From: Betaproteobacteria bacterium SCN2
GTDB taxonomy: Bacteria > Pseudomonadota > Gammaproteobacteria > Burkholderiales > Thiobacillaceae
Reading direction: 5' to 3'
Length of the DNA: 24,000 nucleotides
Assembly (NCBI GenBank): GCA_008923285.1
Contig: WBSG01000009.1
Location: forward strand, 44,114 to 68,113
Shown here: piece after piece, positions 891 to 22,323 of the stretch
How the letters are laid out: each line of letters begins with the position of its first letter
Position numbering within the stretch: the first letter of the stretch is position 1
Notes under the pieces: generated by a model
What the model was told of the DNA's origin: nothing
Databases searched by the model: none
The model's input: the letters and a program-made list of their open reading frames with translations, nothing else
Made by a program: the position numbers and the translations under genes

Positions 891-1319
891 CTATGCTGAC
901 GTGGCGAGTTGCCGGTTTAACTCCTTGATTGCATCTGCGTCCAAGTTGACATAGGTCACAGCCCCGGGATTGTGAGTGTAATTGACTGGTGAGCTGAGCC
1001 GAATGACATTCTTGAGCCGCCATCCATGAGTCCATCCCTTTTCAAAGAAAACATCTCTTTGCCTTTCTGGCTCAACTGCATGCTCGTGAGCGCGGGCTTG
1101 AAATTCTTCATATGTCATAGGCCCGACCGATTCAACAATCTCTGCCACTGCAAATATTTTTCCAGAACCATTTTTGATCAAGGCAACAGGTCCAAGCTGA
1201 CGGTTGTGTTTAGACCGAAGCTCCATGGTTTTGCGGCCTTGAAGAATTTTGTTAAGCGGCTCTTCCATTATTACCAAACCGCGAGTCGGAACAATAAATG
1301 GGATATTTTCAGAATTCAT
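891..1319 (-). CDS. ASCH-domain (PUA-like fold) protein
   Basis: The N-terminal core LNKILQGRKTMELR followed by IKNGSGKIFAVAEI fits the ASCH pattern. I trimmed the 208-aa ORF to Met67 (ATG ending at 1319) because the longer form overlaps gene 1378..2967 by about 140 nt. There is no clear SD, and an alternative ATG ends at 1268. Confidence 0.65.
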   Translation of the reverse strand: MNSENIPFIVPTRGLVIMEEPLNKILQGRKTMELRSKHNRQLGPVALIKNGSGKIFAVAEIVESVGPMTYEEFQARAHEHAVEPERQRDVFFEKGWTHGWRLKNVIRLSSPVNYTHNPGAVTYVNLDADAIKELNRQLATSA

Positions 1320-1377
1320 GTTTTTTGAATAAGTAAGTAAACAGTTGGGGTTTCTCGGGATTTTGCTGATCGAGCGC

Positions 1378-2967
1378 TCAACTTGCGGATTTGAGTTGCT
1401 CGACCTGCTGACCAAGATTGTCCAGTTCTGCATCCAACGCCTTCTGCATCCGCTCCACCCGGTCAATGACCTTCTCGGCATTATTCTTGATTGTTCCGCT
1501 CCAAGTCCGGATTTCATCCAGATATTTCGCCTGCCTCTGGATCTCAGTCAGGGATTTGTCTATGGCCTGAAAATCCGCCACACGCTCGGCATTTTCCACA
1601 CGGGCACGCACCGCCATGGCCTTGGCGGCCATGAAGGCGGCCTTGAGGTAGGCATCACTGGATTCGTCTTCGGCATCCCATACCACGATGATGTCGTTGC
1701 CATAGCGGGCAAGGGTTTCCAGCACGGCTGGGGCGGTGCGGCGTGAATGGACGAAAAGCCCCACCCCGGCATCGCGGTTCTTGCGGGCAGTGTCGATTTC
1801 TTCCAGGGTGGACTTCAAGGTATAGGAAGCGTCTTCCTTGAACTCGACGGCAATGCGCGCGCCGGCCGCGGCATTGTCGGCGCCCAGGGTAATGACGGCA
1901 TCGCCCACCTTGCTACGCGGGATCAGGCCGGTCGTGCTGCCGGTATCCTCGGCGATGTCGCCAGCACGGGTGGCGAGATCCTGCAGGATTTCGAACCCCG
2001 CCTGCTGGAAGTCTTGGCCGTGGGTAGTTGAAGCCGCTTCGGCCGTTTTCTTGGCGCGCATGGCATCCAAAGCACCCACTACCTGGATCTGGAACTCTTG
2101 GGCGGCCTTGTTCTGGGCTTCGATCATCTGGGTCAGTTCACGCTTGAGGCGGGCCAAGGCGGAGTTTTCCGAATCGAGGGTGAACTCGTCGCTGATCTGC
2201 TTTTGCGCTGACTCGACGCGCCTGACCAGGCGGCTCAAGGCCGACTGCTCGTTGTCCAGCGAGAACTCTTGCACGACCTCACCGATTTTCTCCTTGAGAT
2301 CATCGGCTGCCTCGCCATGCTTGTCCTTGAGTTCCCGCACCAGGCGAGCCAACGCACCTTCGGCATTATCCAGCGAGAACTCGCGCAGGATGGCGTCGGC
2401 CTGGGTGGAAAGCGTGGTCTCGACATGACCGCGCAGCGCAGCCAGGAAACGGTTGGACTCGTCCGGCGACAGGTTCTGCATCAGCACGCTGTCTTCGCCC
2501 ACGTGCCGGGTCAGGGTATCGGCCAGGGCGCGTTCGTTCTGCTCGATCTGGGTGCGCATGAGCTTTTCCAGTTCGCCGTCCTGGCGTACCAGACGCTCGA
2601 CACGCTCGTTGAAGCGGCCGTTCTGCGGGTCGAAGTATTCCTTGAGGGTGCCGGTAAGCAGGGTCTCGGTCTGGCGGCGGTAATCGGCCAGGCGGGCTTC
2701 CATTTCCCGCACCAGACGGTCGCCCTCATTGCGCACAGACTCGGCATCGATGCGGCCCTGGGCCTGGTTGAGCGCCAGGATGCCGATGCGAAGCGCAGTG
2801 CGCACGAATCGGTTGCGCTCGCGACCCTCGGGGTAAGCGACCAGCGCGGCGATGGCTTCGGGGTCGTCGATGACCAGGTCCAGGCGCAGGCCGGGCTCCT
2901 GCTCTGCGGCATCGGGCTTGATTTGCCTGGCTGCCGATGTCTGATTGTCCTCTAGCTCTATGGCCAT
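1378..2967 (-). CDS. coiled-coil protein with a C-terminal PD-(D/E)XK-like domain (RmuC/DUF2130-like architecture)
   Basis: 529 aa with a strong SD (GGAGG 8 nt before the ATG at 2967). About 330 aa are Glu/Arg/Leu/Ala-rich heptad-like sequence with three SLD(N/S)ExSAL(A/S)RL motifs. The C-terminus has GDAVITLG...ARIAVEFKED (D...ExK) followed by DAGVGLFVHS. The nuclease-fold call is inferred from the motif only. Confidence 0.55.
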   Translation of the reverse strand: MAIELEDNQTSAARQIKPDAAEQEPGLRLDLVIDDPEAIAALVAYPEGRERNRFVRTALRIGILALNQAQGRIDAESVRNEGDRLVREMEARLADYRRQTETLLTGTLKEYFDPQNGRFNERVERLVRQDGELEKLMRTQIEQNERALADTLTRHVGEDSVLMQNLSPDESNRFLAALRGHVETTLSTQADAILREFSLDNAEGALARLVRELKDKHGEAADDLKEKIGEVVQEFSLDNEQSALSRLVRRVESAQKQISDEFTLDSENSALARLKRELTQMIEAQNKAAQEFQIQVVGALDAMRAKKTAEAASTTHGQDFQQAGFEILQDLATRAGDIAEDTGSTTGLIPRSKVGDAVITLGADNAAAGARIAVEFKEDASYTLKSTLEEIDTARKNRDAGVGLFVHSRRTAPAVLETLARYGNDIIVVWDAEDESSDAYLKAAFMAAKAMAVRARVENAERVADFQAIDKSLTEIQRQAKYLDEIRTWSGTIKNNAEKVIDRVERMQKALDAELDNLGQQVEQLKSAS

Positions 2968-3109: not shown

Positions 3110-4087
3110 TCAGCCGTAGTGACGGGCTGCCTGGGCGATCTGATCCTTGACCCGTCTGCGCAGGCTGGCCGGCCCAAGAACCTCCACATCCGGCCCGTAC
3201 TTGAGGATATCCATCAGCAGCTCGCGGTCGTCGGCATAGGGGATTTCCAGCGAGTAACTGCCATCCGTGCCCATGGTGCCCTTCTGCCTGGGATGCCACT
3301 GCTCGTGGGCAACCCAACGGGCCCGCTCGGGCGTGAACTTGAGCTTGGCCCATTGCACCTTGCTGCCGGAGAAGATGCCATACCCCGCCCCCAGTACTTC
3401 ATCCGTGGTCTTTTCGGACACATCCTTGGCCGGCTTTTCCAGAACCTCGGCCTTCTGGATAGCATCGACCGAGAAGTTGCGCAGCCCCTTGCGCAGGTGG
3501 CACCAGGCATCCAGGTACCAGTTTTCCCGGTAATAGACGAGGCGCTGCGGCGAGACTTCGCGCTCGGTCACTTCGTTGGTGCCGCGGGCATGGTAGGTGA
3601 TCATCAGGCGCTTGCGCCTCAGGAGAACGGAGCCGACGGTCTCGAAATGGGACAGATGCATGCGGCGCGCGGCCACGCCGATGATGCGCACCCGCTTCCT
3701 TACCTCTTCGGCCGTGTTGTCGGCCGTGCCCAGGAGGCCGTTCAGCCGGGCCATGAGCGGCTGGATGTGGGGCGAAAGCAGCCCGCCCTTGTCCAGATTC
3801 GCCATCAGGTGCTGCATGGTCAGCAGCGCATGGATTTCCGAGGCGTTGAACCAGAGGCCGGGCAGTTCGAACTGGCTGCCGGCCGGGGCGTCGCCCTTTT
3901 CGTAGCGGTAGCCCCCTAAATCGCGGTCCCAGATGATGGGGGCGTTGAGCCGGTCACGCAGGTACTGGAAGTCCCGCTTGAGCGTGGCCCGCGAGACCTC
4001 CAGCTCATCAAGGAAGTCGTCGAACGGCACGACCTTGCGGTCGCTGATCATCTGGTCGATCTTGTAGAAACGCTCGGTGCGGTCCAT
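3110..4087 (-). CDS. HTH-WYL-WCX transcriptional regulator (BrxR/CapW/PafC-like), regulator 1
   Basis: N-terminal wHTH (RFYKIDQMISDRKVVPFDDFLDELEVSRATLKRDFQYLRD), a literal WYL motif (YYRENWYLDAWC) and a C-terminal WCX-like tail (LLMDILKYGPDVEVLGPASLRRRV). The start is set at MDRTERF (ATG ending at 4087) with GGAG 6 nt upstream. The 110-aa upstream extension of the ORF overlaps the neighbouring gene. Confidence 0.85.
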   Translation of the reverse strand: MDRTERFYKIDQMISDRKVVPFDDFLDELEVSRATLKRDFQYLRDRLNAPIIWDRDLGGYRYEKGDAPAGSQFELPGLWFNASEIHALLTMQHLMANLDKGGLLSPHIQPLMARLNGLLGTADNTAEEVRKRVRIIGVAARRMHLSHFETVGSVLLRRKRLMITYHARGTNEVTEREVSPQRLVYYRENWYLDAWCHLRKGLRNFSVDAIQKAEVLEKPAKDVSEKTTDEVLGAGYGIFSGSKVQWAKLKFTPERARWVAHEQWHPRQKGTMGTDGSYSLEIPYADDRELLMDILKYGPDVEVLGPASLRRRVKDQIAQAARHYG

Positions 4088-4137
4088 GGTGCACTCCATC
4101 AGGGGATGGCGTGATTCTAGGACACTTTTCCCTATCT

Positions 4138-4154
4138 GGCTCAAGGCATGAGCC
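4138..4154. promoter_or_regulatory. operator-like palindrome A, copy 2: GGCTCA-aggca-TGAGCC
   Basis: Perfect 6+6 inverted repeat, 51 nt upstream of the WYL-1 start codon (4087). Position suggests an autoregulatory site. Confidence 0.65.
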
Positions 4155-4266
4155 ATAAGTGGCGCACGGATCATTCGAACGTGCATCGCGCGATCAGGAT
4201 CAGCATGGCAAAGACCACCAGGGCCAATGCCATTCCCCTGAAGAAATACCTGAACGGGCCCATGAC

Positions 4267-4833
4267 TCAGCACCACTCCCGCACCGTCAGGAAGTGAGCT
4301 CCAGGACAACCGTTCCGAACCAGCACGTACCCCGCTAGAAGTTCCTTCTGCCCCCATGTCGTCTCCCATCGCGCAGTAAAGGACCAAAGCTCGTCTCCAT
4401 CCGAACAGCCGTCCAGGAAATCGCGCCAAGCCGCATTCAGGTGGCCGAACGGCAAGTTCGGTACGGCACCCAGGGGGTCTTCCACCGTTTCGCGAGCCTC
4501 GGTCTCCTGCACGGTCAGTCGTTCCTGTAGATGGCCACGCTCCACGGCAAATTCCCGCTCTTCCTCCAGCGCAGGCTCATTCTTCTTCGTAAAGTGCTCT
4601 GTAATCTTCATGTAGGCGGCAACTGGCCAGAATATTACGACAGCGACAGCAGCAAGCGCCGGGGCAACAATGTTGTTCAGTATTCGAAATGAAAGCTTCT
4701 CGCGGTCTGGATTCACCGCATCGAGCAGGTCATGAAGCGATTCCGACTCGCTCTTTTTCGTCAGCCGTTGCGCACCATAAATGAGGACAAGCACCGAAAC
4801 CCCTATCCCGAGGTACCAATACAGGTAGATCAC
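4267..4833 (-). CDS. membrane protein, 188 aa (two predicted TM helices plus a C-terminal soluble domain)
   Basis: Hydrophobic stretches YLYWYLGIGVSVLVLIYG and IVAPALAAVAVVIFWPVAAY. GTG start with AGGAG 6 nt upstream. The GTGA start/stop overlap with the upstream gene suggests translational coupling. Confidence 0.65.
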   Translation of the reverse strand: MIYLYWYLGIGVSVLVLIYGAQRLTKKSESESLHDLLDAVNPDREKLSFRILNNIVAPALAAVAVVIFWPVAAYMKITEHFTKKNEPALEEEREFAVERGHLQERLTVQETEARETVEDPLGAVPNLPFGHLNAAWRDFLDGCSDGDELWSFTARWETTWGQKELLAGYVLVRNGCPGAHFLTVREWC

Positions 4834-5330
4834 GACTCACTCCTGTCGTCCATGTTAACGCGAGGGAACACTGTCATGGCGCCGACTTCGTAGCCTTCGG
4901 GGGCGTCATCGGAGTCGGCTGTCCCGTTGTGTCGCACTCGCGTCGCCACCACGACACCGCGCTCGATGTCCAAGAACAAGTCCCGCTCGTAGGTGCTTCC
5001 ATAGCCCATGTGGACGTACTCGAGCTGCTTACCCTGCGGAATGCGGATGGTGCCGGTGTACCAGTGCGCGAAAACCCTGTCTGGAAAGTCCGGAAAGATG
5101 GTAGCAACCGAGGCCTCGGATCCATCCTCCAAGGTGCCGTGCAGCCCGACCAGGTACAGTCGTTCGTTGACGATTTCCCATCTACCAACGTAGCCGCGCC
5201 ACAGAGCCGTGCAGTTTGACTCGAACCGTGGGGTATACCCACCCATGGCAAAGTAGTCGCTGAGGGGGTTTGTGCACATGGCCACTTCCTTCCCTTGGTA
5301 GAGCAGCCTTTCAGCAATCTGCGCTGTCAT
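4830..5330 (-). CDS. hypothetical protein, 166 aa
   Basis: Start set at MTAQIAERL (ATG ending at 5330) with GGGAGAG about 5 nt upstream. The longer 221-aa form would overlap the 5'-nucleotidase gene. No domain recognised. Confidence 0.6.
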   Translation of the reverse strand: MTAQIAERLLYQGKEVAMCTNPLSDYFAMGGYTPRFESNCTALWRGYVGRWEIVNERLYLVGLHGTLEDGSEASVATIFPDFPDRVFAHWYTGTIRIPQGKQLEYVHMGYGSTYERDLFLDIERGVVVATRVRHNGTADSDDAPEGYEVGAMTVFPRVNMDDRSES

Positions 5331-5382
5331 GATATCTCTCCCTGTTGGCTCCCTGTTCCACCCGCAGCTACCAGCGCTCCCA

Positions 5383-6315
5383 TTAAGCTGCCTTGGCGGT
5401 AAGCTGGACAACCTGGCCATTGGCCACGCCATAGGGCACATGGCCGGTGGCCACATGCTGGCGCGCCGATTCGCAGTGGCCCTGCTGGTCGTCAAAGAAG
5501 ATGTCCGCGCCGAAGGCCTTGAGGAACTCGCCCTTGTTCATGCCGCCCAGAAACAGCGCCTCGTCGATGCGGATGTTCCATCCCCGGAGCGTGCGAATCA
5601 CACGCTCGTGCGCCGGGGCGCTCCTCGCTGTGATGAGTGCGGTGCGGATGGGCGAAGCCTCGCTCGGATACTCGGACTGTATCTGGTGCAGGATGGAGAG
5701 GAAGCTTTTGAACGGCCCTCCGGAGAGCGGTAAGCGAGCGGCATCCCGTTCGTTTTGCTCGAAAGCCCCCAGCCCTTCGCGCTTGTAGATCTGCTCGGAC
5801 TCGTCGGAGAACACCACGGCATCGCCGTCGAAGGCGATGCGCAGTTGCCCGGAGGCGGTGTTCTGGTTCACATGGGACGGCAGGATGGTCGCCGCAGCAC
5901 AACCGGCTTCCAGCGCCTTGCGCACGTCGTCCTGGCTGGCGGATAGGAAAAGGTGCGCGCCAAAAGGCGCGATATAACGCCAGGTGCTCTCCCCGCGGGT
6001 GAAGGCCGCCCGGGTGATGTCCAGCCCGTGGTGACGAATGGAGTTGAACACCCGAAGGCCCGTGTCCGCGCTGTTGCGCGAGAGCAGGATCACCTCGACC
6101 CGCGCCTTGCCGGTCTCGGCATCGTTCAGGGCCAGAAGCTTCTTGACCAGGGGGAAGGCGATGCCGGGTTCCAGCACGTCCTCCTCGTGCTCGATCTGGT
6201 AGCGGCAATAGGCATCCACACCATCCTCCTCGAATACCCGGTGGCTTTCGTCCAGATCGAACAGGGCGCGGGAAGAAATGGCGACGACCAGCTTGTTGTT
6301 GGTGTTATCGGGCAT
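5383..6315 (-). CDS. HAD-superfamily 5'-nucleotidase (cytosolic cN-I-like family)
   Basis: HAD motif I FDGDAVVF (DxDxV), motif II ITARS and motif III/IV K...FGADIFFDDQ. The overall layout, starting KLVVAISSRALFDL, recalls the cN-IA-type 5'-nucleotidase family. Start at MPDNTNNK with AAGGAG 6 nt upstream. Confidence 0.7.
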   Translation of the reverse strand: MPDNTNNKLVVAISSRALFDLDESHRVFEEDGVDAYCRYQIEHEEDVLEPGIAFPLVKKLLALNDAETGKARVEVILLSRNSADTGLRVFNSIRHHGLDITRAAFTRGESTWRYIAPFGAHLFLSASQDDVRKALEAGCAAATILPSHVNQNTASGQLRIAFDGDAVVFSDESEQIYKREGLGAFEQNERDAARLPLSGGPFKSFLSILHQIQSEYPSEASPIRTALITARSAPAHERVIRTLRGWNIRIDEALFLGGMNKGEFLKAFGADIFFDDQQGHCESARQHVATGHVPYGVANGQVVQLTAKAA

Positions 6316-6363
6316 GGCGGGCTCCTTTGGCTTTGTCATACCTGCCATGCTACGGGGAATGGT

Positions 6364-6380
6364 GGCTCATAGAATGAGCC
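6364..6380. promoter_or_regulatory. operator-like palindrome A, copy 3: GGCTCA-tagaa-TGAGCC
   Basis: Perfect 6+6 inverted repeat, 49 nt upstream of the 5'-nucleotidase start codon (6315). Confidence 0.6.
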
Positions 6381-6483
6381 TGTTCATCAAATACTTCAAA
6401 AATGCTTGGGGGCACTTCCGTTTTTGGTGATCACATGGAGAATAACCATGCAAACTTGGACATTTATTCAGCTGTCTAGATTT

Positions 6484-6930
6484 CTAGATTCGTATTCTGG
6501 TTGCATTGATCGGAATGCTTAAATACGTAGTAGATTTTTGACTGTGAGAATAGCCATTTCTCTTATCCGCCCATCTTTTTCCACATCGTACTTCGTTCTT
6601 CTCTGGGTCCAGTATCAAAAACCTGTGGTTGTCTTTCACCACCACTACCCAATGAAAATGCTTTTTTCTACGATTCACGCCAACAATCGCAGTGCCCTGT
6701 ATGTCGTCCCAGCATCCGGATTTTTTCTCTTTTGCACGAATTCCGTATTTTTTAAGAGCCTTACCCAAATCCTTAGCTAGTGTGTAGTACTCCTCCCTTC
6801 GAGTGCTCCAATTAAGAATTTCGGCAAAGGCATCTTTCATTTCTTCGTAAGAGCGATTTGCAATCATGGCCACACAGGCAATTCCACATCCAGTTTTGTC
6901 CTTCTGTTTTATCAAGGATATCGTCGCCAT
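6484..6930 (-). CDS. papain-like cysteine peptidase, C39-like
   Basis: Ordered Q-C-H-D pattern: LIKQKDKTGCGIACVAMI (Gln, then the catalytic Cys in a GCG context) and HFHWVVVVKDNHRFLILDP (His and Asp). GGGAGG lies 6 nt before the ATG. The DNA is markedly AT-rich compared with its neighbours. Confidence 0.6.
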   Translation of the reverse strand: MATISLIKQKDKTGCGIACVAMIANRSYEEMKDAFAEILNWSTRREEYYTLAKDLGKALKKYGIRAKEKKSGCWDDIQGTAIVGVNRRKKHFHWVVVVKDNHRFLILDPEKNEVRCGKRWADKRNGYSHSQKSTTYLSIPINATRIRI

Positions 6931-7011
6931 CAGTTGCCTCCCACCTCGCAGTAATTCTCTGATTCCAACTTAATTAACACAGCCAAATTTCATCATTTAG
7001 CCACAGAAGGA

Positions 7012-8871
7012 TTAGTCAATCCTGTTTGGTAACCTGAAGGCATTTCCCACAAAGCGTTCCAGCGAACCCAATGCAAGTGTACCCGCCGTCATGTCTGATT
7101 CTCCGCCCAGCGGCGTGGCATTTGTCTTGAGACATTCCTCATAGATTGCCTGCCGTCGAGGTTCGCAATTATCGCTGTTGATCAAATCACGCAGTAAATT
7201 GGTCGCCTCGATGCAGTCCATTGAAGGATCTTCATTTCGGGGGCCACTATGCTCCATGAATATATAGGAGAAGGTCTTGTTCATGACCAAGGACGGCATT
7301 TCGTAATAGTAGCGGTCGATCATGACCTGGCGTCTGCTCCCGTCTTGGGCATCGGCCTCGGCGTCTGGGTCCAGTGGAAGAATGAGCAGATCGAAGATGG
7401 CATCATCATCGGTATCCGGTTTCATGGCCAATGTGGAAACATGATTCCCATCCAGGTCGCGGATGGAAAAAATGCGCAGGCCGTACAACAGGCATTTTTG
7501 CGCATAGCTCCCCACACAATGCCCCATGGCATTCCCCTCTTGCCATAAAGAAACTTCATCATTCAGTTCGACGATCATCCGCTTTCCCAACCGGATTGAC
7601 GAATCCAGCAATGGCGTCCAGGAGATTCCCTTTCCTGAAGGGTCGCCAGCAATCCCTTTTGTATTACGCATCTTTTCATGCCAATGATCGCTGATTTTGG
7701 TGAGCGTTTTGGGGCCAGTCTTGAACGCCCATCGCCTGACAGTGCGACGCGCCTTGATCGAACTGATACGGCGGTGATGAGCCACGCCATCGGCAAGCGC
7801 ATCCAGAAAGTCGCTGACGCCTGATACGGCAGGAAACCGCAAATCCTCTTGTTCCTTCTCAAGCACGCTCATGGGAAGCTTTTGATATCCGGTGAGCCTT
7901 TTTAGCGCTGTAGCAGGCATTTCCCACAATCCGCCAATGACGCGCTCATTGATTCTTCCCAGTCCAAGACTGATGCGCCAATAGTGAGCAGCCAGCAAGG
8001 CAACATCACCTTCTTGGGCCAGATATTTCCACCCCGGCTGCATCGACAGCGCCTTGAGCATCGGCTGAAACTCGTCCCGAACTGCCTTGAATAGCGCAGT
8101 CAGATGGAGTCCCTTGGTTCGCCTCAAGGCAGCGGCCGGCACATCGAAATGCCCCGACAGGAAATGAATCAGTTTCAGACCCTGGTCGATGCAGGCGAGC
8201 ACCTTCGACCGCTCTCCGCAGAAGGACATCTTGTCGTCATCTCGACGGCAGTTGGCCCATTCCTCAGGCAGTTCGTGGCAAAGGTATCTTGCCAGCCAGG
8301 GAAAAATGGCAAATGCCTGCCGCCTGTAATGCGAACATCTGGAGTCATCGCAATCAATCAGGTTGTAGGCGGCCACATTCGGGAACATTCCCCTGTCGTG
8401 AGTACGGAGTTTTTTCAGGATGCCGAAAGCCTCTGCATCAAGCAGGCCGATAAACCTCGTGAGGTCTTGTTTGGCCTGCGTAATTTCTGCGGAAGACCTA
8501 CCAAGCCACCCGTCATTGCTCTCGTCGTAATTTCCATCCCAGTATCGCCTGATGATTTCCCCTTCAAGCGCACTCGGGTCAAGCGCCGCACAGACCATTG
8601 GCTCCCAAGCCACGGCATCGTGCGCCTCGTTCAAGATCGAATCCACACCCTTGCCCAGGTGATCAAGCATGGACTGGCATGCTTCTTCGGGCGTACCAGC
8701 CCAATCCTTGCGAACATAGGCGACTGCGCCGCTGGGCATCGCCACCCACATCAAGCAGTCGTGCTGCCCATGATTCTCTGATGAGGGAGCGATCAACTGG
8801 TATAGCCCCGCCACTCCGGGCAATGGGTTAAGGACTGTTTTCGACTCCAAGCGGTGCTTGACGGTATTCAT
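7012..8871 (-). CDS. PcfJ-like domain protein
   Basis: The C-terminal segment LWQEGNAMGHCVGSYAQKCLLYGLRIFSIRDLDGNHVSTL matches my memory of the PcfJ-like signature (EG..M.HCV.sY...ifs.r). Start set at MNTVKH with GGAGG 5 nt upstream, 17 nt after the AAA+ gene stop. The N-terminal roughly 450 aa are unassigned. Confidence 0.65.
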   Translation of the reverse strand: MNTVKHRLESKTVLNPLPGVAGLYQLIAPSSENHGQHDCLMWVAMPSGAVAYVRKDWAGTPEEACQSMLDHLGKGVDSILNEAHDAVAWEPMVCAALDPSALEGEIIRRYWDGNYDESNDGWLGRSSAEITQAKQDLTRFIGLLDAEAFGILKKLRTHDRGMFPNVAAYNLIDCDDSRCSHYRRQAFAIFPWLARYLCHELPEEWANCRRDDDKMSFCGERSKVLACIDQGLKLIHFLSGHFDVPAAALRRTKGLHLTALFKAVRDEFQPMLKALSMQPGWKYLAQEGDVALLAAHYWRISLGLGRINERVIGGLWEMPATALKRLTGYQKLPMSVLEKEQEDLRFPAVSGVSDFLDALADGVAHHRRISSIKARRTVRRWAFKTGPKTLTKISDHWHEKMRNTKGIAGDPSGKGISWTPLLDSSIRLGKRMIVELNDEVSLWQEGNAMGHCVGSYAQKCLLYGLRIFSIRDLDGNHVSTLAMKPDTDDDAIFDLLILPLDPDAEADAQDGSRRQVMIDRYYYEMPSLVMNKTFSYIFMEHSGPRNEDPSMDCIEATNLLRDLINSDNCEPRRQAIYEECLKTNATPLGGESDMTAGTLALGSLERFVGNAFRLPNRID

Positions 8872-8888
8872 GCCTGCCTCCATCCCGA

Positions 8889-10991
8889 TCAGGCCGCAAA
8901 GCCGATCTTGCGGCCATGGCCTTCCTGATTGAGTTCGCTTTCCTGGCGCAGCGCCTCGAGCGCGTCCTCACAGTTCCTGATCCTTCTGAGGCGGGACTGT
9001 CTCGCGACGGTCGCGTAGTTGCCGGGGGTGATCCCGCTTACTCTGGCAAGCCTGGCTTTCAGTTCGGTCGCTGGCGCAGGAAGGGACAGGATGTTGCACA
9101 GGTTCTCAAACAGGCGCCATGCCTGCTCTGGCAGCAGGAATCCAAAGCAGACCTTGAGGTCAAAGCGACGCACCGAGGCCTTGTCCAGGTTGTCCATCAG
9201 GTTGGTCGAGGCAATGAAGATGCCCTTGAAGTTTTCCATGCAGGTCAGCATCTCGTTTACCTGGGTGACCTCCCAGCTGTTGCGGGCCTGCTGACGGTCC
9301 ATCAGAAAGCTGTCCGCCTCGTCGATCAGTAGAACGGACTTGTCCATTTCGGCCCGATCGAAAGCATCGGCAATGTTCTTCTCGGTTTCGCCTACCCACA
9401 TCGAGATCAGGTCCGAGGCGCGCTTGACCAGCAGGGGCTGCCCCAGGAGGTGCGCGAGGTAGTGGCCATAGGCGGTCTTGCCCGTGCCGGGCGGCCCGTA
9501 CAGGCAGAGCCGCCCTTCCCGGCTTTCGAGCAGGCCCTCGCCGAGCGACGCCAGGTCGCAATCCGCGTTGAGGTAGCTCGGGTCGTAGTCGAGCCCGCCT
9601 GCGGCTTTGAGTCCTAAGCCCCTTTTCTTGCCCTGGGCCTTCAGGCTGGTCTCCATGATTCTGGTCAGTACTGCCTGGCGGTCGGAATCAGGAATCTGCT
9701 CGCGGACACTGGAATAGACGGCCGCGCTGCGCTCGATCAGGGCCGGCGTCAGGTGCTCGCAGGCGGCAGCCTGATGAGCCCAGTCTGTGCCGACTTCCGG
9801 TACATGCTGCCTGATGAGCTGTTCGCGCACCGCATAGGGTGGCGTCTTGAGTTCCAGCACATAGTCGAACCGGCGAAGGTAGGCCGGATCGAACAGGTCG
9901 ATGCTGTTGGAAAGCCAGACTGTGGGAACCGGGTTGGTTTCCAGCAGCTCGTTCATGAACGCCTTGTTCTCGGCAGGTTTGTCCTTGCGTACCAGCCATT
10001 CACTCGGCTTGGGGAACACGTCCTCAATCTCGTCGAAGACGATCAGGCATTGCCCGGCCGTGTCGAGCAGGCTCTGGCTGAACATGAAGTACCTGAAGCG
10101 ACCATGGGAGACCAGGGGGTCTCCATAGATGTCCTTGGTCGGCACTTCATAGGCCGCAGAGGAAAGCTCTCTGGACAGGGTGCGAACCAGTTCGGTCTTT
10201 CCGCAGCCTGGAGTGCCATACAGCAGGATATTCACGCCCCTGGCACGGTTGCTCAGCGCATCCTTCAGGCGTGCCAGAACGATCTGCAGGTCATCCCCCA
10301 GGTAGGAAAACGCGGATAGGTCATGTTTCCCCGACTTGCTGCCGACCAGATAGCCTTCCAGGATATCGATCGTGTCGGCATGTTCCTCCTGCATTTGCGA
10401 GGAAAGTCCGGGCAGCAGTTCGACCTTTCTGCTGAAATCCTCAATCTCGGCAGAGAGCTTCAGTATGCCGGTTTTGGCCAGCCGGCCTTCGGATGAAAAA
10501 GCCTTTTGCGCTTCTGCTTCGGGGAGTCCCAACGCTCTGGCAACGATCTGCACACACGCGAGCCGAGGCAATCTTTCAGCTGCATCGAAGATCGCGGTCA
10601 GTGCCGGCTCCTGGCGGACGAGGACTGCAAACAGCAATATATCCTGCTCGCTCTGGCTTAAATCCAAATGACTGGCCAGCCTGGCGATGTTTCTGGACAG
10701 GACAGTGCTTTCCGGCTTTTTGGGTTGTTCGGACTGCTGGGCCCTGAGCAATTCCCCGAAGCCGGCGATCTTTTCCGCTTCCTCCAGCTTCCAGAACTCC
10801 GATGGGGTAATCGCATTGCCGTCACCTCCTAGAGAGAACCTGCTTTCAGTAGCGAGACAAGGAATGTCTAGCTGCAGCGCCTCGTTTTGCCACACGAAGC
10901 CGTGTCGGACAGCCTGGGTTGCATAAGGGCTGACCAGAAAGCGCAGCGCCCACAACCGCATGAGCGGCAGGTATTCGGAGTTGATGGCCAT
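8889..10991 (-). CDS. tandem AAA+ ATPase (two classic-clade AAA domains)
   Basis: D1 has Walker A GTPGCGKT and Walker B CLIVFDEIED. D2 has Walker A GPPGTGKT, Walker B VLLIDEADS, sensor-1-like FIASTN and RRFD. The roughly 230-aa N-terminal region is unassigned. Confidence 0.9.
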   Translation of the reverse strand: MAINSEYLPLMRLWALRFLVSPYATQAVRHGFVWQNEALQLDIPCLATESRFSLGGDGNAITPSEFWKLEEAEKIAGFGELLRAQQSEQPKKPESTVLSRNIARLASHLDLSQSEQDILLFAVLVRQEPALTAIFDAAERLPRLACVQIVARALGLPEAEAQKAFSSEGRLAKTGILKLSAEIEDFSRKVELLPGLSSQMQEEHADTIDILEGYLVGSKSGKHDLSAFSYLGDDLQIVLARLKDALSNRARGVNILLYGTPGCGKTELVRTLSRELSSAAYEVPTKDIYGDPLVSHGRFRYFMFSQSLLDTAGQCLIVFDEIEDVFPKPSEWLVRKDKPAENKAFMNELLETNPVPTVWLSNSIDLFDPAYLRRFDYVLELKTPPYAVREQLIRQHVPEVGTDWAHQAAACEHLTPALIERSAAVYSSVREQIPDSDRQAVLTRIMETSLKAQGKKRGLGLKAAGGLDYDPSYLNADCDLASLGEGLLESREGRLCLYGPPGTGKTAYGHYLAHLLGQPLLVKRASDLISMWVGETEKNIADAFDRAEMDKSVLLIDEADSFLMDRQQARNSWEVTQVNEMLTCMENFKGIFIASTNLMDNLDKASVRRFDLKVCFGFLLPEQAWRLFENLCNILSLPAPATELKARLARVSGITPGNYATVARQSRLRRIRNCEDALEALRQESELNQEGHGRKIGFAA

Positions 10992-11035: not shown

Positions 11036-11054
11036 TCCGACATGTGATGTCGCA
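11036..11054. promoter_or_regulatory. operator-like palindrome B, copy 1: TCCGACA-tgtga-TGTCGCA
   Basis: 13 of 14 arm positions are palindromic. It lies 45 nt upstream of the AAA+ ATPase start codon (10991). Confidence 0.55.
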
Positions 11055-11459
11055 GTGATGATGGGGTAGGTAATTCCTGGGCGGCGACAACCTCAGGGCC
11101 AAGAATGAATTCGCAGCACGTCCAAAGCGGTTCAGGGACAAGTCCAGCAGCTGCGGATTCCGGGAGGACTGACCACCTATTTAGGTGACTACTGACCAGT
11201 CATCCGATCTATTCTGGAAATGACCGATTCTCGGCCAAAGCCGACTTCGGCCCAGCTGCGCAAGTGTGTCTGCTCACGTATCCAGAGCGGTCGTAAGCCA
11301 GTCCGTCACACCGAATGTCTGCTTCCTAGTTCGGCGAACGCGTCCTACCGACCCCAAACGAACGTAAGCAAGCTTGCCATCAACGTTTTCCTTTTAGTCC
11401 TTAGCGGACGAACCAGAGACCTGGCAAGCTGACATTAAACCCGAACATGTCTTGGGCGA

Positions 11460-15769: not shown

Positions 15770-16666
15770 CTAGTGCCGGATATATACTTCCACGCATTCC
15801 CGCATGGTGTTGTCATGAATCTCAAGGATCGGCCCTATGCCCCCTTCGGCATCCACCTGATATCCCCCTGCCAGATCCCAGGCAATGGGCACACCACATT
15901 CCTTGGCTGTCTTGAACACCAGGCCATCGCGCAGCCTGATTTGCTCCGTGGTCAGGAATCCGCCCAAGGGATCATTGATGTGCGGATCAGCGCCGGCCTG
16001 GTACAGGATGATTTGGCAATCCTGCATGGACCTTACGAGTGCTGGAATGCGGGATATGAACGCCTTGGCTTGCGCTGCCTCAGCGTATTCACTGCCCGCG
16101 GTGTAGTGCCTGATCCAAGAGGAAGCCTGGTGATGCTGAATCAGATCTTCCGTTCCATCGCCGTAATGCATGTCGAAATCAAGAATCCCGATGCGTGTCG
16201 CTAGACCTTCATGCTTCAAGGAAAGTGACGTCACCATCAGGCCGTTGAAGGTGCAATATCCGAACGGCTGATCGTATCCTGCGTGGTGAAATCCGGAACA
16301 GGGTGCAACGGCGATCTGGCCGTTGCGGACGGCCTCACGAGCAGCCGACAGCATCGCGCCGACAGTATAGGGAAGCGTGGCAGCCACTTCCTGCAGCGTG
16401 TTTCCGAATCCATTCTTGATCTCCCCGGCCAGAATCCCTTCTACATAGGCAGGACTGTGGGTACGCTTGAGATCCTCGATGGTTGCTGGCGAAGGTTCCA
16501 TGATGCGGATCGGTAACCTGCGATCCATCCAGGATGCGACAACTTGTGCAGGCTTCCCCGCGCTAGGGGAAAAGCTCTCGAAGTTTGCGACCATCCTTGG
16601 CGTATAGAATACCGGCAGCTTCTCTAGCCGCGCGTCGTCTTGGATTTGGTGGCCCATGTCGAACAT
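15770..16666 (-). CDS. histone-deacetylase-fold (arginase/deacetylase superfamily) amidohydrolase
   Basis: All classic HDAC motifs are present: SGFHHAGYD (His-His dyad), FGYCTFNG, DFDMHYGDGT (Zn ligands Asp/His), YQAGADPHINDPLGG (Zn Asp) and LAGGYQ (catalytic Tyr). The start is ambiguous: TTG ending at 16669, ATG at 16666 or ATG at 16657. Confidence 0.85.
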   Translation of the reverse strand: MFDMGHQIQDDARLEKLPVFYTPRMVANFESFSPSAGKPAQVVASWMDRRLPIRIMEPSPATIEDLKRTHSPAYVEGILAGEIKNGFGNTLQEVAATLPYTVGAMLSAAREAVRNGQIAVAPCSGFHHAGYDQPFGYCTFNGLMVTSLSLKHEGLATRIGILDFDMHYGDGTEDLIQHHQASSWIRHYTAGSEYAEAAQAKAFISRIPALVRSMQDCQIILYQAGADPHINDPLGGFLTTEQIRLRDGLVFKTAKECGVPIAWDLAGGYQVDAEGGIGPILEIHDNTMRECVEVYIRH

Positions 16667-16703
16667 CAATATGAATGGAGAAGGTCATATTGAAATCGAT
16701 GTA

Positions 16704-16722
16704 TGCGACAAAAAGTGTCGCA
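16704..16722. promoter_or_regulatory. operator-like palindrome B, copy 2: TGCGACA-aaaag-TGTCGCA
   Basis: Perfect 7+7 inverted repeat, 35-47 nt upstream of the candidate HDAC-fold gene starts (38 nt from the ATG at 16666). Confidence 0.65.
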
Positions 16723-18079: not shown

Positions 18080-19081
18080 CTAATTGTAAAGTGCAATCAT
18101 TCCTGAGATTTCTTCTTGAATGGCCTTACGCAAACTGACTGGCTTGACGACTTCCACATAGTGCCCGAGCCCCAGAATCCACCACTTCAATTGGAGTGTA
18201 TCCGCGACTGTGGCAATGACCCTGAGTCGGCCATCCTTGCTCTCCGAAATGACCTGATCGTCTGACAGCGGTGTTTCGTACAAATGCCTGCCGCTGTCAG
18301 GATCGAACAGCAGTTCGATCCTGATCTGGTCACCGTCCCCGAAGTCCATATGTCCTTCCGCCAGGTAGGTATCGATCGAGAAATCCTCCGGACGGGTGAA
18401 TGTCCTGTCCATGCGTGTCGCCTTCTTGATGCGACAGACCGTCAGGATGCGGGTGTCGTCGTAGCCTTCATAGCGGCAAACCAGGTACAGCATGGGTCCG
18501 CGCATGACGTATGCAAGCGGAGAGATGATGTGTTCTTTTGCCTCCGTGCGCCCGCGCCCCTGGTAGCTGACTTGCAGCCACTGGTTATTAAGAAGTGCGA
18601 GGCTGACGGCTTCGTGAACCTTGGGATCAATCGGGCAGGGTTTGAGCGGCTGGGCCGGGGTGCGGGCGCGCACCTTGTCGGGCCAGTCTTTGAGTGCCTT
18701 GGCGTTGTGCGAGGACTTCAACCGCTCACGCGCAGCCTTGAGTAGTGGCGACAAGCTGTCCAGCACGGTGGGGGGCAGCATGTCCTTGATGTGGCGCTCC
18801 AGCATGTAGAGGGACAGCGCCTGCTCGTCATTCATGGCCGGCAGGTTCCAGATGGCAGCATCCCTGGGCCAGCTCCAGCCGTAGGTGCGGTCCCGATCGT
18901 CCACCTGCAGCCCGAACAGTTCCACAAAACTCCACAGATCGCGCTCCACGCTGCGTTTGTTGATGCCGTAGCCGCGATCCATCAGCTTCTCGGTCAGCTG
19001 GCTGGCGGTGATCTGGCTGGGGTAGCGCGGGATCAGCCTCAGCATTTCCCACTGGCGAAGCAGAGTGTTGTCCTTGCTCAT
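18080..19081 (-). CDS. HTH-WYL-WCX transcriptional regulator, regulator 2
   Basis: N-terminal wHTH (LLRQWEMLRLIPRYPSQITASQLTEKLMDRGYGINKRSVERDLWSF), a WYL-position variant (GPMLYLVCRYEGYDDTRILTVCRI) and a WCX-like tail (LKWWILGLGHYVEVVKPVSLRKAI). Start set at MSKDNT with GAGAGG 4 nt upstream. Confidence 0.85.
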   Translation of the reverse strand: MSKDNTLLRQWEMLRLIPRYPSQITASQLTEKLMDRGYGINKRSVERDLWSFVELFGLQVDDRDRTYGWSWPRDAAIWNLPAMNDEQALSLYMLERHIKDMLPPTVLDSLSPLLKAARERLKSSHNAKALKDWPDKVRARTPAQPLKPCPIDPKVHEAVSLALLNNQWLQVSYQGRGRTEAKEHIISPLAYVMRGPMLYLVCRYEGYDDTRILTVCRIKKATRMDRTFTRPEDFSIDTYLAEGHMDFGDGDQIRIELLFDPDSGRHLYETPLSDDQVISESKDGRLRVIATVADTLQLKWWILGLGHYVEVVKPVSLRKAIQEEISGMIALYN

Positions 19082-19130
19082 GGCGCCTCTCATTTGTCCG
19101 GATGGCTCAATCCTAGCAAGGATAGTGTTT

Positions 19131-19155
19131 CAGTGCGACACGTTATGTCGCACTG
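19131..19155. promoter_or_regulatory. operator-like palindrome B, copy 3: CAGTGCGACA-cgtta-TGTCGCACTG
   Basis: Perfect 10+10 inverted repeat, the longest copy. It is centred in the 119-nt divergent region between WYL-2 (start 19081) and the FtsZ-like gene (start 19201). Confidence 0.7.
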
Positions 19156-21493: not shown

Positions 21494-21512
21494 CGCGACA
21501 TGGATTGTCGCA
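21494..21512. promoter_or_regulatory. operator-like palindrome B, copy 4: CGCGACA-tggat-TGTCGCA
   Basis: 13 of 14 arm positions are palindromic, and the flanks GAG/CTC extend the pairing. It lies 71 nt upstream of the membrane-protein start (21583) and 21 nt after the DUF2779 gene stop. Confidence 0.55.
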
Positions 21513-21582
21513 CTCTGGCTCTACCATGTACTCAAGCTCATGCCGAGCTCAAAGTTCAATAACATCCAATAAGGGAGGAAAA

Positions 21583-22323
21583 ATGCTTCAACAAATCGAA
21601 ACCATCTATCTGGCCATTCTCAGGGTCGTCGTCATAGTCATCGCCGGCCTGCTGCTGGTTTCCGTCGTGATCTACGGGCTGAACTCCTTCCAGGGACTGT
21701 CCGAGCCCAAGCCGGACACCACGCCGCCTGCGATCACCAGCGAGTCACTGACCCGTGAGCTCACGGAAACAACCACCGGGGCTGACAACACCCCCGAGTT
21801 ACGAGATGACGCGGAGGCTGAACAAAAGGCTGACCTGGCAAAGAACGGCATCCACTACTCGCGCGCAGCCGAGGCAATAGCCAGGTTTGTGGAAAAACAA
21901 TCGGGTGGCGAGGAATTGGTGATTAAGCAGAAGGTCGAAGAGGTGATCAAGGAGAACGCCGAGTCGCAACCGACGCCAGAACTGGCAACAGCCTATGCGA
22001 AAGGGTTCGCTGATGCCATCGAAGGCACCCTGGCCAATCCTTCCATTGCTAACCTGGCACAGCAAACAGGCGCCATAGAGGTCGTCAACAAGGCATTGAA
22101 CGCTTACAGCCAGTCATTCCACGATCAGCTGGCCGAAAAGGAGCGGAAATTCGTCGAGGAACAACAAGAACGTTTGGAGAAGCAGGCGGGGGCCATGATG
22201 AGCCTCTATATAGCAGCCGGCGCGTTCGGCATGTTTCTGCTGGTCGTGTTCCTGTCCATCTTCATCCGCATCGAGCGGCACCTCCGGCACCTGGATGGCA
22301 GGCCGCTTACGCAGAACAGCTGA
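21583..22323 (+). CDS. bitopic/hairpin membrane protein, 246 aa
   Basis: Start at MLQQIETIY with AAGGGAGG 5 nt upstream. N-terminal TM helix (LRVVVIVIAGLLLVSVVIYGL), an acidic helical middle and a C-terminal TM helix (LYIAAGAFGMFLLVVFLSIFI). Followed by a palindromic terminator. Confidence 0.7.
   Translation: MLQQIETIYLAILRVVVIVIAGLLLVSVVIYGLNSFQGLSEPKPDTTPPAITSESLTRELTETTTGADNTPELRDDAEAEQKADLAKNGIHYSRAAEAIARFVEKQSGGEELVIKQKVEEVIKENAESQPTPELATAYAKGFADAIEGTLANPSIANLAQQTGAIEVVNKALNAYSQSFHDQLAEKERKFVEEQQERLEKQAGAMMSLYIAAGAFGMFLLVVFLSIFIRIERHLRHLDGRPLTQNS

Follow-up and report, generated by a model that had tools for sequence, protein, structure and literature searches.

The window, a stretch of 24,000 nucleotides from Betaproteobacteria bacterium SCN2, carries on its minus strand genes for a tandem AAA+ ATPase, a PcfJ-like protein and a C39-like cysteine peptidase (Table 1). 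The open reading frame coordinates agree with a preliminary description of this DNA, which noted the common strand and the tight spacing. The ATPase and PcfJ-like genes lie 17 nt apart if translation of the latter starts at the ATG at 8871, which is preceded by GGAGG, and 5 nt apart if an in-frame ATG at 8883 is used instead; the gap to the C39 gene is 81 nt. The C39 gene is, as had been noted, much more AT-rich than the other two, with a GC content of 42.3% compared with 59.4% for the ATPase gene, 53.9% for the PcfJ-like gene and 63.0% for the next gene.

Table 1. Features of the locus, with positions in the window.
Feature	Position	Strand	Basis
PF06189 5'-nucleotidase, PADLOC candidate system PDC-S08; conserved right-hand flank of the variable slot	5383..6348	-	Pfam 1.5e-139, PADLOC 1.8e-143
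Variable AT-rich replacement segment, 674 bp, 41.7% GC	6383..7056		Nucleotide homology break
Stand-alone C39-like cysteine peptidase, 148 aa	6484..6930	-	Pfam Peptidase_C39, PCAT1 alignment
Long PcfJ-family protein, 619 aa: N-terminal beta unit, helical middle, C-terminal PcfJ core with Cys452	7012..8871	-	Pfam, alignments, structure models
Type II (tandem D1-D2) classical AAA+ ATPase, 700 aa	8889..10991	-	Pfam AAA 1e-42, two stretches
Putative WYL operator, DriD/DdaA-type box CGAC-N7-GTCG, 45 nt upstream of the ATPase ATG	11037..11053		Window statistics, conservation
Operator copy, 36 nt upstream of a histone-deacetylase-like gene (15770-16669)	16705..16721		1 mismatch of 14
WYL-WCX regulator, distant DriD homologue, likely regulator of the boxes	18080..19093	-	Pfam WYL + WCX
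Operator copy in the promoter region from which the WYL gene and the 263-aa / DUF2779 genes diverge	19135..19151		No mismatch
Operator copy at the start of a 272-aa gene (21505-22323)	21495..21511		Box search

The ATPase has the features of a type II AAA+ protein: two modules, Walker A and B motifs, the arginines of the second region of homology and a D2 pore loop. Its two Walker A/B pairs (GTPGCGKT with LIVFDEIED, and GPPGTGKT with VLLIDEADS) are intact, as the preliminary description had stated; this was confirmed by Pfam and by a family alignment of 16 sequences, in which the key Walker residues are invariant. Direct reading shows the second-region arginines kept in both modules (RRFD), and the D2 pore-loop motif MWVG is conserved (MWVGETE at residues 531-537). 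A Pfam scan matched 41 families in all, 25 of them listed for the ATPase, and none of these 25 maps to residues 1-230; a Cdc48-type N-terminal domain was not detected among them. The nearest solved structures are Cdc48, p97 and VAT (1.8e-32). The likeness to the ietAS ATPase that had been suggested holds at the sequence level, where the PADLOC IetA model matches at 5e-43 as a domain-level match only. The NCBIfam model IteA (NF042959) gives 127.5 bits in three partial stretches, which does not reach its cut-off of 510. The dN/dS of 0.08-0.11 indicates purifying selection.

Relatives of the ATPase were confirmed in at least 329 of 600 candidate stretches from one-genome-per-species contigs. At the best 80 loci from other species, the ATPase gene typically lies near genes for WYL regulators, DUF2779 nucleases, SIR2 and RtcB. 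A DUF2779 gene lies directly downstream on the same strand at 10 of these 80 loci; SIR2 takes this position in at least three loci and on one plasmid, with a 4-nt overlap, and RtcB and Metallophos genes do so at still others. On a Sphaerotilus plasmid, a WYL-ATPase-SIR2 module adjoins BREX-2, and on a Methylomonas plasmid a member of the ATPase family adjoins tra genes.

PcfJ takes its name from a gene of conjugative plasmids. The preliminary description recognized the HCVGSY signature, which we confirmed, but it left about 450 residues of the protein without assignment. This can now be corrected: residues ~135-490 align with many PcfJ-family proteins of 550-710 aa, and PcfJ-like proteins of phages match the whole structure model (E 4e-5, probability 0.95-1.0). 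Pfam PcfJ (PF14284) itself matches residues 432-486 only, with 22.5 bits and an E value of 1e-4, under the gathering score of 25. Membership in the family rests on homology to proteins that do pass this model and on the conserved core motif; the former are found among 454 HMMER matches centred on residues 380-490 and include P0019 (PcfJ 115.9 bits), P0072 and P0127. The core motif reads E-G-x4-H-C-x7-C ... S-T ... H-x4-N. Cys452 is invariant in an alignment of 139 sequences, in which E445, G446, H451, C460, S469, T480 and N546 are conserved at 90% or more. An insertion of ~50 residues (487-534) is shared by the closest relatives only. The gene is under purifying selection (dN/dS 0.23-0.39) and evolves faster than its neighbours.

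The PcfJ family profile found no match among PDB sequences, and the full-length model found nothing in the PDB below E 0.6 with Foldseek. Foldseek matches to the model of the core domain were mostly GNAT acetyltransferases at the top (E 0.1-1, TM ~0.35), which we regard as a weak lead. The order of the motif also suggested a papain-like Cys-His-Asn arrangement; we dropped this reading since the fold matches give it no support. PHROGs had no match for ten island proteins, including the PcfJ-like protein. A literature search, in which 'PcfJ' was swamped by C. elegans pCFJ plasmids, found no biochemical test of ATPase or PcfJ-like activity. In other loci, the genes for relatives of the PcfJ-like protein follow a single-module AAA gene of an unrelated family or a gene for a type IV coupling protein; further relatives occur in phages and within giant polyvalent-type proteins. 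The latter carry the PcfJ domain two or three times, together with InPase and topoisomerase IB domains.

The third gene encodes a peptidase with the ordered Q/C/H/D set that had been described. Pfam Peptidase_C39 matches with 40 bits (cut-off 22), C15, H93 and D108 align with the catalytic positions of the PCAT1 peptidase domain (4ry2, 7n87), and Q9 is conserved upstream. This gene lies in the 674-bp replacement segment, along with the last ~15 codons of the PcfJ-like gene and a promoter-like site, TTGACT-16-AATGAT, at 7019-6992. Nucleotide homology to the related loci L001 and L002 ends at 7057 and restarts at 6382. The C39 gene is absent from L001, L002, L003, L095, L096 and L097, whose PcfJ-like proteins are 83-89% identical to that of the window; three other unrelated gene sets stand in its place in relatives, so that the slot has held four different sets overall. 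Homologues of the peptidase are rare, with only 5 clusters in 5.8 billion proteins. They follow RadC or HNH genes, and in the loci examined none neighbours a member of the ATPase or PcfJ-like family.

The preliminary description had read these genes as one cassette, an autonomous three-gene anti-phage system that pairs an ATPase with a protease in the manner of IetAS. The common strand and short gaps, the IetA-like ATPase, the intact catalytic set of the peptidase and the location in a defence island all fit such a system. However, outside the same strain, all close relatives carry unrelated genes in place of C39. The C39 gene sits in a segment of foreign composition with its own promoter-like site, its homologues keep other company, and PADLOC found no match for either the PcfJ-like or the C39 protein. 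Across 80 ATPase loci, 61 PcfJ loci and the C39 homologues we saw no conserved linkage of the three families. Thus, comparison largely refutes the three-gene reading, which we now consider very improbable. The same description had suggested that the peptidase might be a later addition, and the slot exchange, the homology break, the 42% GC and the other partners of the homologues bear this out. Because the gene is absent from close relatives, homology breaks around it, the slot swaps its contents, its GC content is low and its homologues have other partners, we judge from these comparisons that it is a recent AT-rich insertion, cargo at an exchange slot and outside the conserved pair.

The ATPase and PcfJ-like genes behave differently from the C39 gene. 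Together with ~250 bp upstream (11241-7057), they are conserved at 93% nucleotide identity among close relatives whose flanks differ, and the tight pairing was seen in three different flank contexts. Because of the 17-nt gap with its GGAGG, this identity despite differing flanks and the purifying selection on both genes, we interpret the pair as one operon that moves as a block. Adjacency is limited to relatives with at least 83% PcfJ identity. At none of the best 80 ATPase-family loci from other species does a PcfJ-like gene lie next to the ATPase gene; one of them (L026) has a clear PcfJ-like gene 7.4 kb off, and two others have marginal ones at 20-23 bits. Conversely, among 61 PcfJ-family loci, AAA neighbours occur only in the window's own subgroup and come from two unrelated AAA families. 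The single-module AAA gene upstream of the PcfJ-like gene in L004-L009 was rejected as an orthologue of the window ATPase, with which it has the P-loop alone in common. This gene is 82% conserved between islands whose PcfJ-like genes share only 37% identity. These comparisons indicate that the two families are uncoupled at greater distance, and the pairing seen here could be a real functional pair that is merely young.

This bears on the possibility that the two genes form a toxin-antitoxin-like or abortive-infection module, in which the ATPase would restrain or activate a toxic PcfJ-like enzyme or, more generally, a constant ATPase would serve a swappable downstream enzyme. There is a precedent in IetA, which is an antitoxin to the protease IetS (PMC13069673), and the window ATPase is IetA-like. 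The 17-nt gap, the movement of the pair as a block between different flanks, the variety of enzymes in the downstream position elsewhere (DUF2779, SIR2, RtcB, Metallophos) and the faster evolution of the PcfJ-like gene are also consistent with such a module. However, the PcfJ-like gene occupied the downstream slot at none of the 80 ATPase loci, and PcfJ-like genes found elsewhere either are solitary with an operator of their own or come after an AAA gene of an unrelated family. Phages and conjugative elements are the typical carriers of PcfJ-like proteins, the ATPase scores far under the IteA cut-off, and IetS is not present. We regard a toxin-antitoxin module as unlikely.

The preliminary description also placed an operator copy ahead of the genes, and this copy is real. 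It contains the palindrome GCGACA-N5-TGTCGC, which is a CGAC-N7-GTCG box; four copies of this box occur in the window. For the sequence at 11038-11052, CGACATGTGATGTCG, the window holds 3 matches with no more than one mismatch, compared with 0.03 expected. CGAC-N7-GTCG is the consensus of the WYL activators DriD and DdaA (PMC10853764, PMC13010146). In L002, L003 and L095 the ATPase gene is preceded by the same box, which is also kept upstream of WYL genes in the window and in L004. In 29 of 75 loci from other species, a box is found within -400 to +60 of the ATPase start, mostly at about -45, compared with 2.2 expected; 5 of these 29, all from one Comamonadaceae subfamily, fall within the coding sequence at +20, which brings the real count closer to 24. 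Boxes also lie directly upstream of PcfJ-like genes in L004-L009, L026 and L117. No promoter was detected ahead of the ATPase gene with a simple sigma-70 scan. Another 14-bp palindrome, CACCTAAATAGGTG (11174-11187, flanked by GGTCAGT repeats), was considered as an operator and rejected, since it occurs only once in the window and is no longer symmetrical in L002. Of the two WYL genes in the window, at 3110-4429 and 18080-19093, the latter lies 7 kb from the ATPase operon and has a box in its own promoter, and its product matches the DriD structures 8tp8 and 9pfq at 5e-6. We predict that this regulator is the one likely to act at the window boxes.

The surroundings of these genes are those of an island. 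The 5'-nucleotidase is 96-97% identical in L001, L002 and L004, and beyond position 1 of the window lie genes for a McrA-like HNH protein, UvrD, MZB and a NERD helicase. The downstream genes and the sister islands include a 5'-nucleotidase-type phosphatase, ADP-ribosylglycohydrolase (L001, L004), Macro, WYL regulators, restriction-fold nucleases and helicases. The window and the 10 kb beyond position 1, the other side being the contig end, were found to be free of genes for an integrase, a relaxase or type IV secretion, and megablast of the whole window against plasmids gave no match. From this gene content, we read the setting as a mosaic defence or DNA-damage island and not as a conjugation backbone.

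It has to be asked whether the PcfJ-like protein, with or without the ATPase, serves an integrative island in element establishment or counter-defence instead of host defence. Related islands L004-L007 begin with a tyrosine integrase. The origin of the PcfJ name, the distant relative directly after a type IV coupling protein gene, the PcfJ domains of polyvalent-type proteins, the PcfJ-like proteins of many large phages and the ATPase relative beside tra genes all point towards mobile elements. The preliminary description had raised a location within transfer modules as an alternative; the coupling-protein neighbour is in line with this, whereas the window is without transfer genes. The neighbours here are restriction-like and candidate defence genes, and control through a WYL regulator and a DriD-type box suits a signal of host damage or infection equally well. 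We consider a mobile-element function distinctly unlikely.

In sum, we favour the interpretation that the locus is a WYL-box-driven two-gene operon of the ATPase and the PcfJ-like protein with an unrelated C39 cargo gene downstream, and not a three-gene system; we give this a probability of about 0.6. The ATPase and PcfJ-like genes would be independent members of one WYL regulon in many proteobacteria that have here been joined into one transcription unit. The C39 gene would have come later, within the AT-rich segment, at a slot that exchanges cargo.

Based on these results, we propose a model for how the operon may work. By analogy with DriD and DdaA, single-stranded DNA that arises from DNA damage, phage replication or incoming conjugative DNA would bind the WYL regulator of the island. 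The regulator would then sit on the box upstream of the ATPase gene and turn on the ATPase-PcfJ-like operon as well as three other units in the window; the co-transcription, the binding and the direction of control are deduced from sequence. The operon is thus predicted to be inducible by single-stranded DNA. Judging from its conserved motifs, the ATPase ring may thread or remodel a protein by means of its D2 pore loop, and the PcfJ-like protein may work on a target through its invariant cysteine.

In a bolder version of this model, which we consider unlikely, an as yet undescribed modular system would be built around the tandem ATPase as its fixed component, and a DriD-like WYL regulator would turn it on upon the appearance of single-stranded DNA. 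The enzyme slot of this system would be swappable between a DUF2779 nuclease, SIR2, RtcB, a phosphoesterase and, here, a PcfJ-like protein, and PcfJ-like proteins would be cysteine-dependent effectors controlled or delivered by an unfoldase. If true, this would be the first functional assignment for the PcfJ family, which spans phages, conjugative elements and polyvalent proteins.

For the two-gene interpretation, the consequence is that the ATPase-protease lead is set aside in favour of a promoter with a WYL box, an operon of two genes and a cargo slot. Cdc48-like tandem ATPases with a box at a fixed distance would extend WYL DNA-damage regulons to island genes that resemble conflict systems. 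PcfJ-like proteins, which have an invariant cysteine and a core without significant match among solved structures, would belong to the same regulon. Each of these two observations offers a defined inducer and defined mutants.

Several known systems resemble parts of this locus. The window C39 differs from the peptidases of ABC bacteriocin exporters in that it stands alone, and no ABC-transporter family was found among the window open reading frames scanned with Pfam. IetAS (Gao_Iet) is similar in having a classical AAA+ protein, with IetA as the best match in the defence database, a second gene in the operon and a defence-island location. However, IetA is a single module of ~370 aa compared with the 700-aa tandem ATPase, and the partner here is a PcfJ-family protein. 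The nearby peptidase is a non-conserved C39 and not a subtilisin-like IetS, and neither it nor the PcfJ-like protein gave a subtilase match in Pfam or any match in PADLOC.

ARG-centred systems regulated by WYL or Nudix proteins have been predicted to counter viral ADP-ribosylation (Iyer et al., 2022; PMC9503650). The phosphatase, glycohydrolase, Macro, WYL, nuclease and helicase genes downstream and in the sister islands fit their description, whereas the window is without the glycohydrolase and has two small genes in its place. That paper names other chaperones, not an AAA+ ATPase or a PcfJ-like protein. Compared with other PF14284 proteins, the PcfJ-like protein has the same core motif with the invariant cysteine and the long architecture of phage members, but it is chromosomal and island-borne, lies behind an AAA+ gene with a putative WYL operator, and scores just under the Pfam threshold. 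The ATPase shares with the Cdc48/p97/VAT unfoldases two AAA modules, Walker A and B motifs, arginine fingers and an aromatic-hydrophobic-Gly D2 pore loop, but it is without a detected Cdc48-type N domain and belongs to a bacterial, island-borne and apparently WYL-regulated family.

The closest parallel in regulation is the SOS-independent DNA-damage response of DriD in Caulobacter and DdaA in Acinetobacter. The window regulator is no more than a remote relative of DriD (E 5e-6, over WYL-WCX). The box has the same CGAC-N7-GTCG architecture with a variable centre, and here as there a wHTH-WYL-WCX regulator lies nearby with a box in its own promoter and several units share the box. The predicted targets, however, differ: in place of recA, didA, aciT and ssb, they are island genes, which code for a DUF2779 nuclease and a deacetylase-like protein in addition to the tandem ATPase and the PcfJ-like protein.

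We propose that the window carries an ATPase-PcfJ operon controlled by a WYL box (GCGACA-N5-TGTCGC), with the peptidase gene as exchangeable downstream cargo, and we give this composite reading a probability of about 0.6. The ATPase and PcfJ-like families would be separate members of one WYL regulon, joined here into a single operon. The finding is of interest mainly for the family-wide operator result and for the uncharacterised PcfJ core.

The window occupies the final 24 kb of a 68-kb contig, and one of its proteins matches a hypothetical protein of 'Betaproteobacteria bacterium SCN2' at 100% identity. As the preliminary description stated, the three genes lie tightly spaced on one strand behind an operator copy: the gaps are 17 nt (ATPase to PcfJ-like) and 81 nt (PcfJ-like to C39), and CGACATGTGATGTCG precedes the ATPase start codon by 45 nt. 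The PcfJ-like start codon at 8871 is preceded by GGAGG; an alternative in-frame ATG at 8883 is also possible.

Features of the window and of related loci (L numbers)
Feature	Locus	Position	Strand	Remark
Tandem ATPase gene	window	8889-10991	minus	700 aa
PcfJ-like gene	window	7012-8871	minus	619 aa
C39-like peptidase gene	window	6484-6930	minus	148 aa
Operator copy	window	16705-16721		36 nt upstream of deacetylase-like gene
Operator copy	window	19135-19151		divergent promoter, WYL-WCX regulator gene versus 263-aa/DUF2779 genes
Operator copy	window	21495-21511		start of 272-aa gene with weak TrbL-like similarity
CACCTAAATAGGTG region	window	11160-11200		
Cargo slot	L001, L002		opposite	198-aa gene
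Cargo slot	L095, L096			228-aa gene and HNH protein
Cargo slot	L097		opposite	two other genes
GGCTCA-N5-TGAGCC	window	6349-6382		
GGCTCA-N5-TGAGCC	L001	~3205-3225		
GGCTCA-N5-TGAGCC	L002	~5960-5980		
ADP-ribosylglycohydrolase gene	L001	4198-5346		
ADP-ribosylglycohydrolase gene	L004	19101-20255		
Two small genes	window	4267-5495		~166-221 aa and 188 aa
529-aa ORF	window	1378-2967		
ASCH-domain ORF	window	891-1517		
LAGLIDADG gene	L004	9260-9736		
LAGLIDADG gene	L007	6559-7068		
Coupling protein and PcfJ-family genes	L101	5388-10513		
WYL-headed module	L154	5805-16061		
Restriction-like and helicase run	L093/L094	10384-20321		

The operator has three matches in the window compared with 0.03 expected, or four with the 17-nt form. 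With the three further DriD-type boxes, the predicted WYL regulon would span the island and comprise no fewer than four transcription units. L002, L003 and L095 retain the box ahead of their ATPase gene, and L004 retains it ahead of its WYL gene. In loci from other species, it lies near the ATPase start (-400 to +60, starts being estimated) in 29 of 75, mostly at -40 to -100, compared with 2.2 expected from the box density in those 75 loci. Five of the 29, from one subfamily, sit at +20 and are probably coding sequence. PcfJ-like genes of L004-L009, L026 and L117 are also directly preceded by this box. About 180 nt ahead of the ATPase gene, CACCTAAATAGGTG forms a 14-bp perfect palindrome between GGTCAGT direct repeats; it was rejected as the ATPase operator because it occurs only once in the window and L002 does not preserve the symmetry.

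GCGACA-N5-TGTCGC equals CGAC-N7-GTCG, the consensus of the WYL activators DriD (Caulobacter) and DdaA (Acinetobacter), which bind single-stranded DNA and turn on DNA-damage genes (PMC10853764; PMC13010146). The window encodes a WYL protein of 337 aa that is distantly related to DriD. WYL regulators are the commonest neighbours in the best 80 ATPase-family loci (31-32 of 80), followed by DUF2779 nucleases (10-14 of 80), SIR2, RtcB and a phosphoesterase. From DriD and DdaA we infer WYL binding to the observed boxes, the direction of control and the inducing signal.

The peptidase scores above the Pfam C39 threshold, and its Cys15, His93 and Asp108 are in register with the PCAT1 peptidase domain's catalytic residues, in agreement with the papain-like set described from sequence. 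Its gene is indeed AT-rich (42.3% GC, versus 54-63% in neighbouring genes). Six loci from metagenomes and one MAG (L001-L003 and L095-L097) have PcfJ-like proteins that share 83-89% identity with that of the window, with the ATPase 97% identical wherever the contig extends far enough; the C39 gene is present in none of the six. Nucleotide homology with L002 runs at 93% from 11241 to 7057, breaks, and restarts at 6382 ahead of the 5'-nucleotidase gene. The intervening 674-bp segment (41.7% GC) holds the final ~15 codons of the PcfJ-like gene and a promoter-like site immediately ahead of the C39 gene. The C39 protein is rare (5 clusters among 5.8 billion proteins); its homologues come after a RadC or an HNH gene, and no AAA or PcfJ-like gene precedes them in the homologue loci examined. 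These comparisons argue that the peptidase gene is exchangeable cargo downstream of the operon and outside the conserved unit, in line with the earlier suspicion of a later addition. The three-gene system first proposed, in which ATPase, PcfJ-like protein and C39 act together, would suit their close spacing, but is highly improbable, because close relatives replace C39, its homologues keep other partners, and the ATPase-PcfJ linkage is itself lost at distance. A conserved palindrome, GGCTCA-N5-TGAGCC, lies just upstream of the 5'-nucleotidase gene where homology to the sister loci restarts; it could represent a second type of operator or mark the recombination boundary of the cargo slot.

A block of ~250 bp of upstream DNA, the ATPase gene and the PcfJ-like gene reappears between differing flanks (upstream, MazE at one locus and a DUF697 gene at a different one; downstream, three different gene sets). 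Both genes are under purifying selection, with dN/dS of 0.08-0.11 for the ATPase and 0.23-0.39 for the PcfJ-like gene. This argues that, in this lineage, the two genes form a genuine unit that is probably co-transcribed. At greater distance the linkage is lost, and the pairing is young. The ATPase family is large, with relatives confirmed in at least 329 of 600 candidate stretches of a one-genome-per-species collection. In its best 80 loci the PcfJ-family profile found no PcfJ-like gene adjoining the ATPase, one clear match 7.4 kb off (L026) and two marginal ones. Two PcfJ-like relatives ~40% identical to the window's (P0005 and P0006) follow an AAA gene of another, single-module kind, whose similarity to the window ATPase is confined to the P-loop; a LAGLIDADG endonuclease gene separates the two. 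Between two islands this AAA gene is 82% identical and the PcfJ-like genes only 37%. L007 has a tandem ATPase with 38% identity to that of the window; it lies at a distance of 6 kb on the opposite strand, together with Hda-like and Macro genes. Beyond window-type and single-module genes, the PcfJ family had no further AAA neighbours in 61 loci. Free-standing LAGLIDADG homing-endonuclease genes in L004 and L007 are 71% identical, each directly followed by a WYL box.

Functional coupling of ATPase and PcfJ-like protein, either IetAS-like or as an ATPase with swappable effectors, would suit the conserved block and must also accommodate the separation at distance; we consider it unlikely. An overlapping idea, that the tandem ATPase is the constant part of a WYL-switched modular system with an interchangeable downstream enzyme, is about as unlikely.

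Returning to the proposed WYL-controlled operon, its PcfJ-like protein had been described as largely orphan (~450 aa). It is instead a full-length member of a long PcfJ family: residues ~135-490 align with many relatives of 550-710 aa, and phage PcfJ-like proteins match the entire structure model. Among 139 sequences, Cys452 is invariant and Glu445, Gly446, His451, Cys460, Ser469, Thr480 and Asn546 are at least 90% conserved. The core model is good (pLDDT 84) and has no significant match among solved structures, the top ones being weak (E 0.1-1) and mostly GNAT acetyltransferases. We found no experimental work on PcfJ-family function in the literature. Giant proteins of 1,691-3,332 aa (P0019, P0072 and P0127) contain two or three copies of the domain, also bear an InPase domain or a topoisomerase IB core, and look like phage polyvalent proteins. 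L101 is a conjugative-element setting: the gene for a TraG/VirD4-type coupling protein of 1,150 aa is overlapped at its 3' end by a 558-aa PcfJ-family gene, and a gene for a ClpB-like AAA_2 ATPase lies upstream. As the domain occurs both in such giant proteins and directly after a type IV coupling protein, use of the family by mobile elements fits. For the window's PcfJ-like protein, with or without the ATPase, a mobile-element role is improbable; no transfer genes lie in or near the window, and the conjugative location considered earlier applies to that one distant relative.

The ATPase is a classical tandem AAA+ protein with two Pfam AAA modules; the two Walker A/B sets noted earlier are intact and, like the paired arginines, invariant in a 16-member family alignment. 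Its best solved-structure relatives are Cdc48, p97 and VAT. Because the D2 pore loop is canonical (MWVG), the sequence suggests protein unfolding or remodelling. The N-terminal 230 residues have no Pfam assignment. The clearest example of the ATPase within a longer WYL-headed module is L154 (Sphaerotilus plasmid NZ_CP035707), where WYL, tandem ATPase, Sir2 (4-nt overlap), DUF4804, dual-specificity phosphatase, two unnamed-family genes, MoxR and VWA directly follow BREX-2 pglZ and brxD.

Adjoining the cargo slot is the gene for a PF06189 5'-nucleotidase, which corresponds to PADLOC candidate PDC-S08. Past window position 1 lie HIT, a McrA-like HNH protein, UvrD, an MZB protein and a NERD helicase. 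After HIT, L093 and L094 carry ScoMcrA-type DNA-binding and HNH, UvrD, a 1,084-1,105-aa protein without assigned family, an MZB (DUF1998) protein and a NERD/SLFN-like helicase, a run that may represent one or two further defence systems. Sister islands additionally carry ADP-ribosylglycohydrolase, Macro, SIR2 and an integrase. In L001 and L004 the 5'-nucleotidase gene is followed by that for the ADP-ribosylglycohydrolase; the window instead has a pair of unrelated small genes without family matches there, and this position is a second exchange point. A 529-aa ORF without family match (weak PADLOC PDC-S06 match, 7.8e-4) overlaps the start of an ASCH-domain ORF by ~140 nt, and one of these two starts is therefore probably wrong; the L093 gene calls are 529 and 180 aa.

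Compared with IetAS, the ATPase-protease anti-phage pair cited in the preliminary description, the window ATPase resembles IetA at the domain level, but scores far below the curated IetA-type family and has no IetS protease beside it. The gene setting of the window and its sister islands matches the WYL-regulated, glycohydrolase-centred conflict neighbourhoods of Iyer et al.
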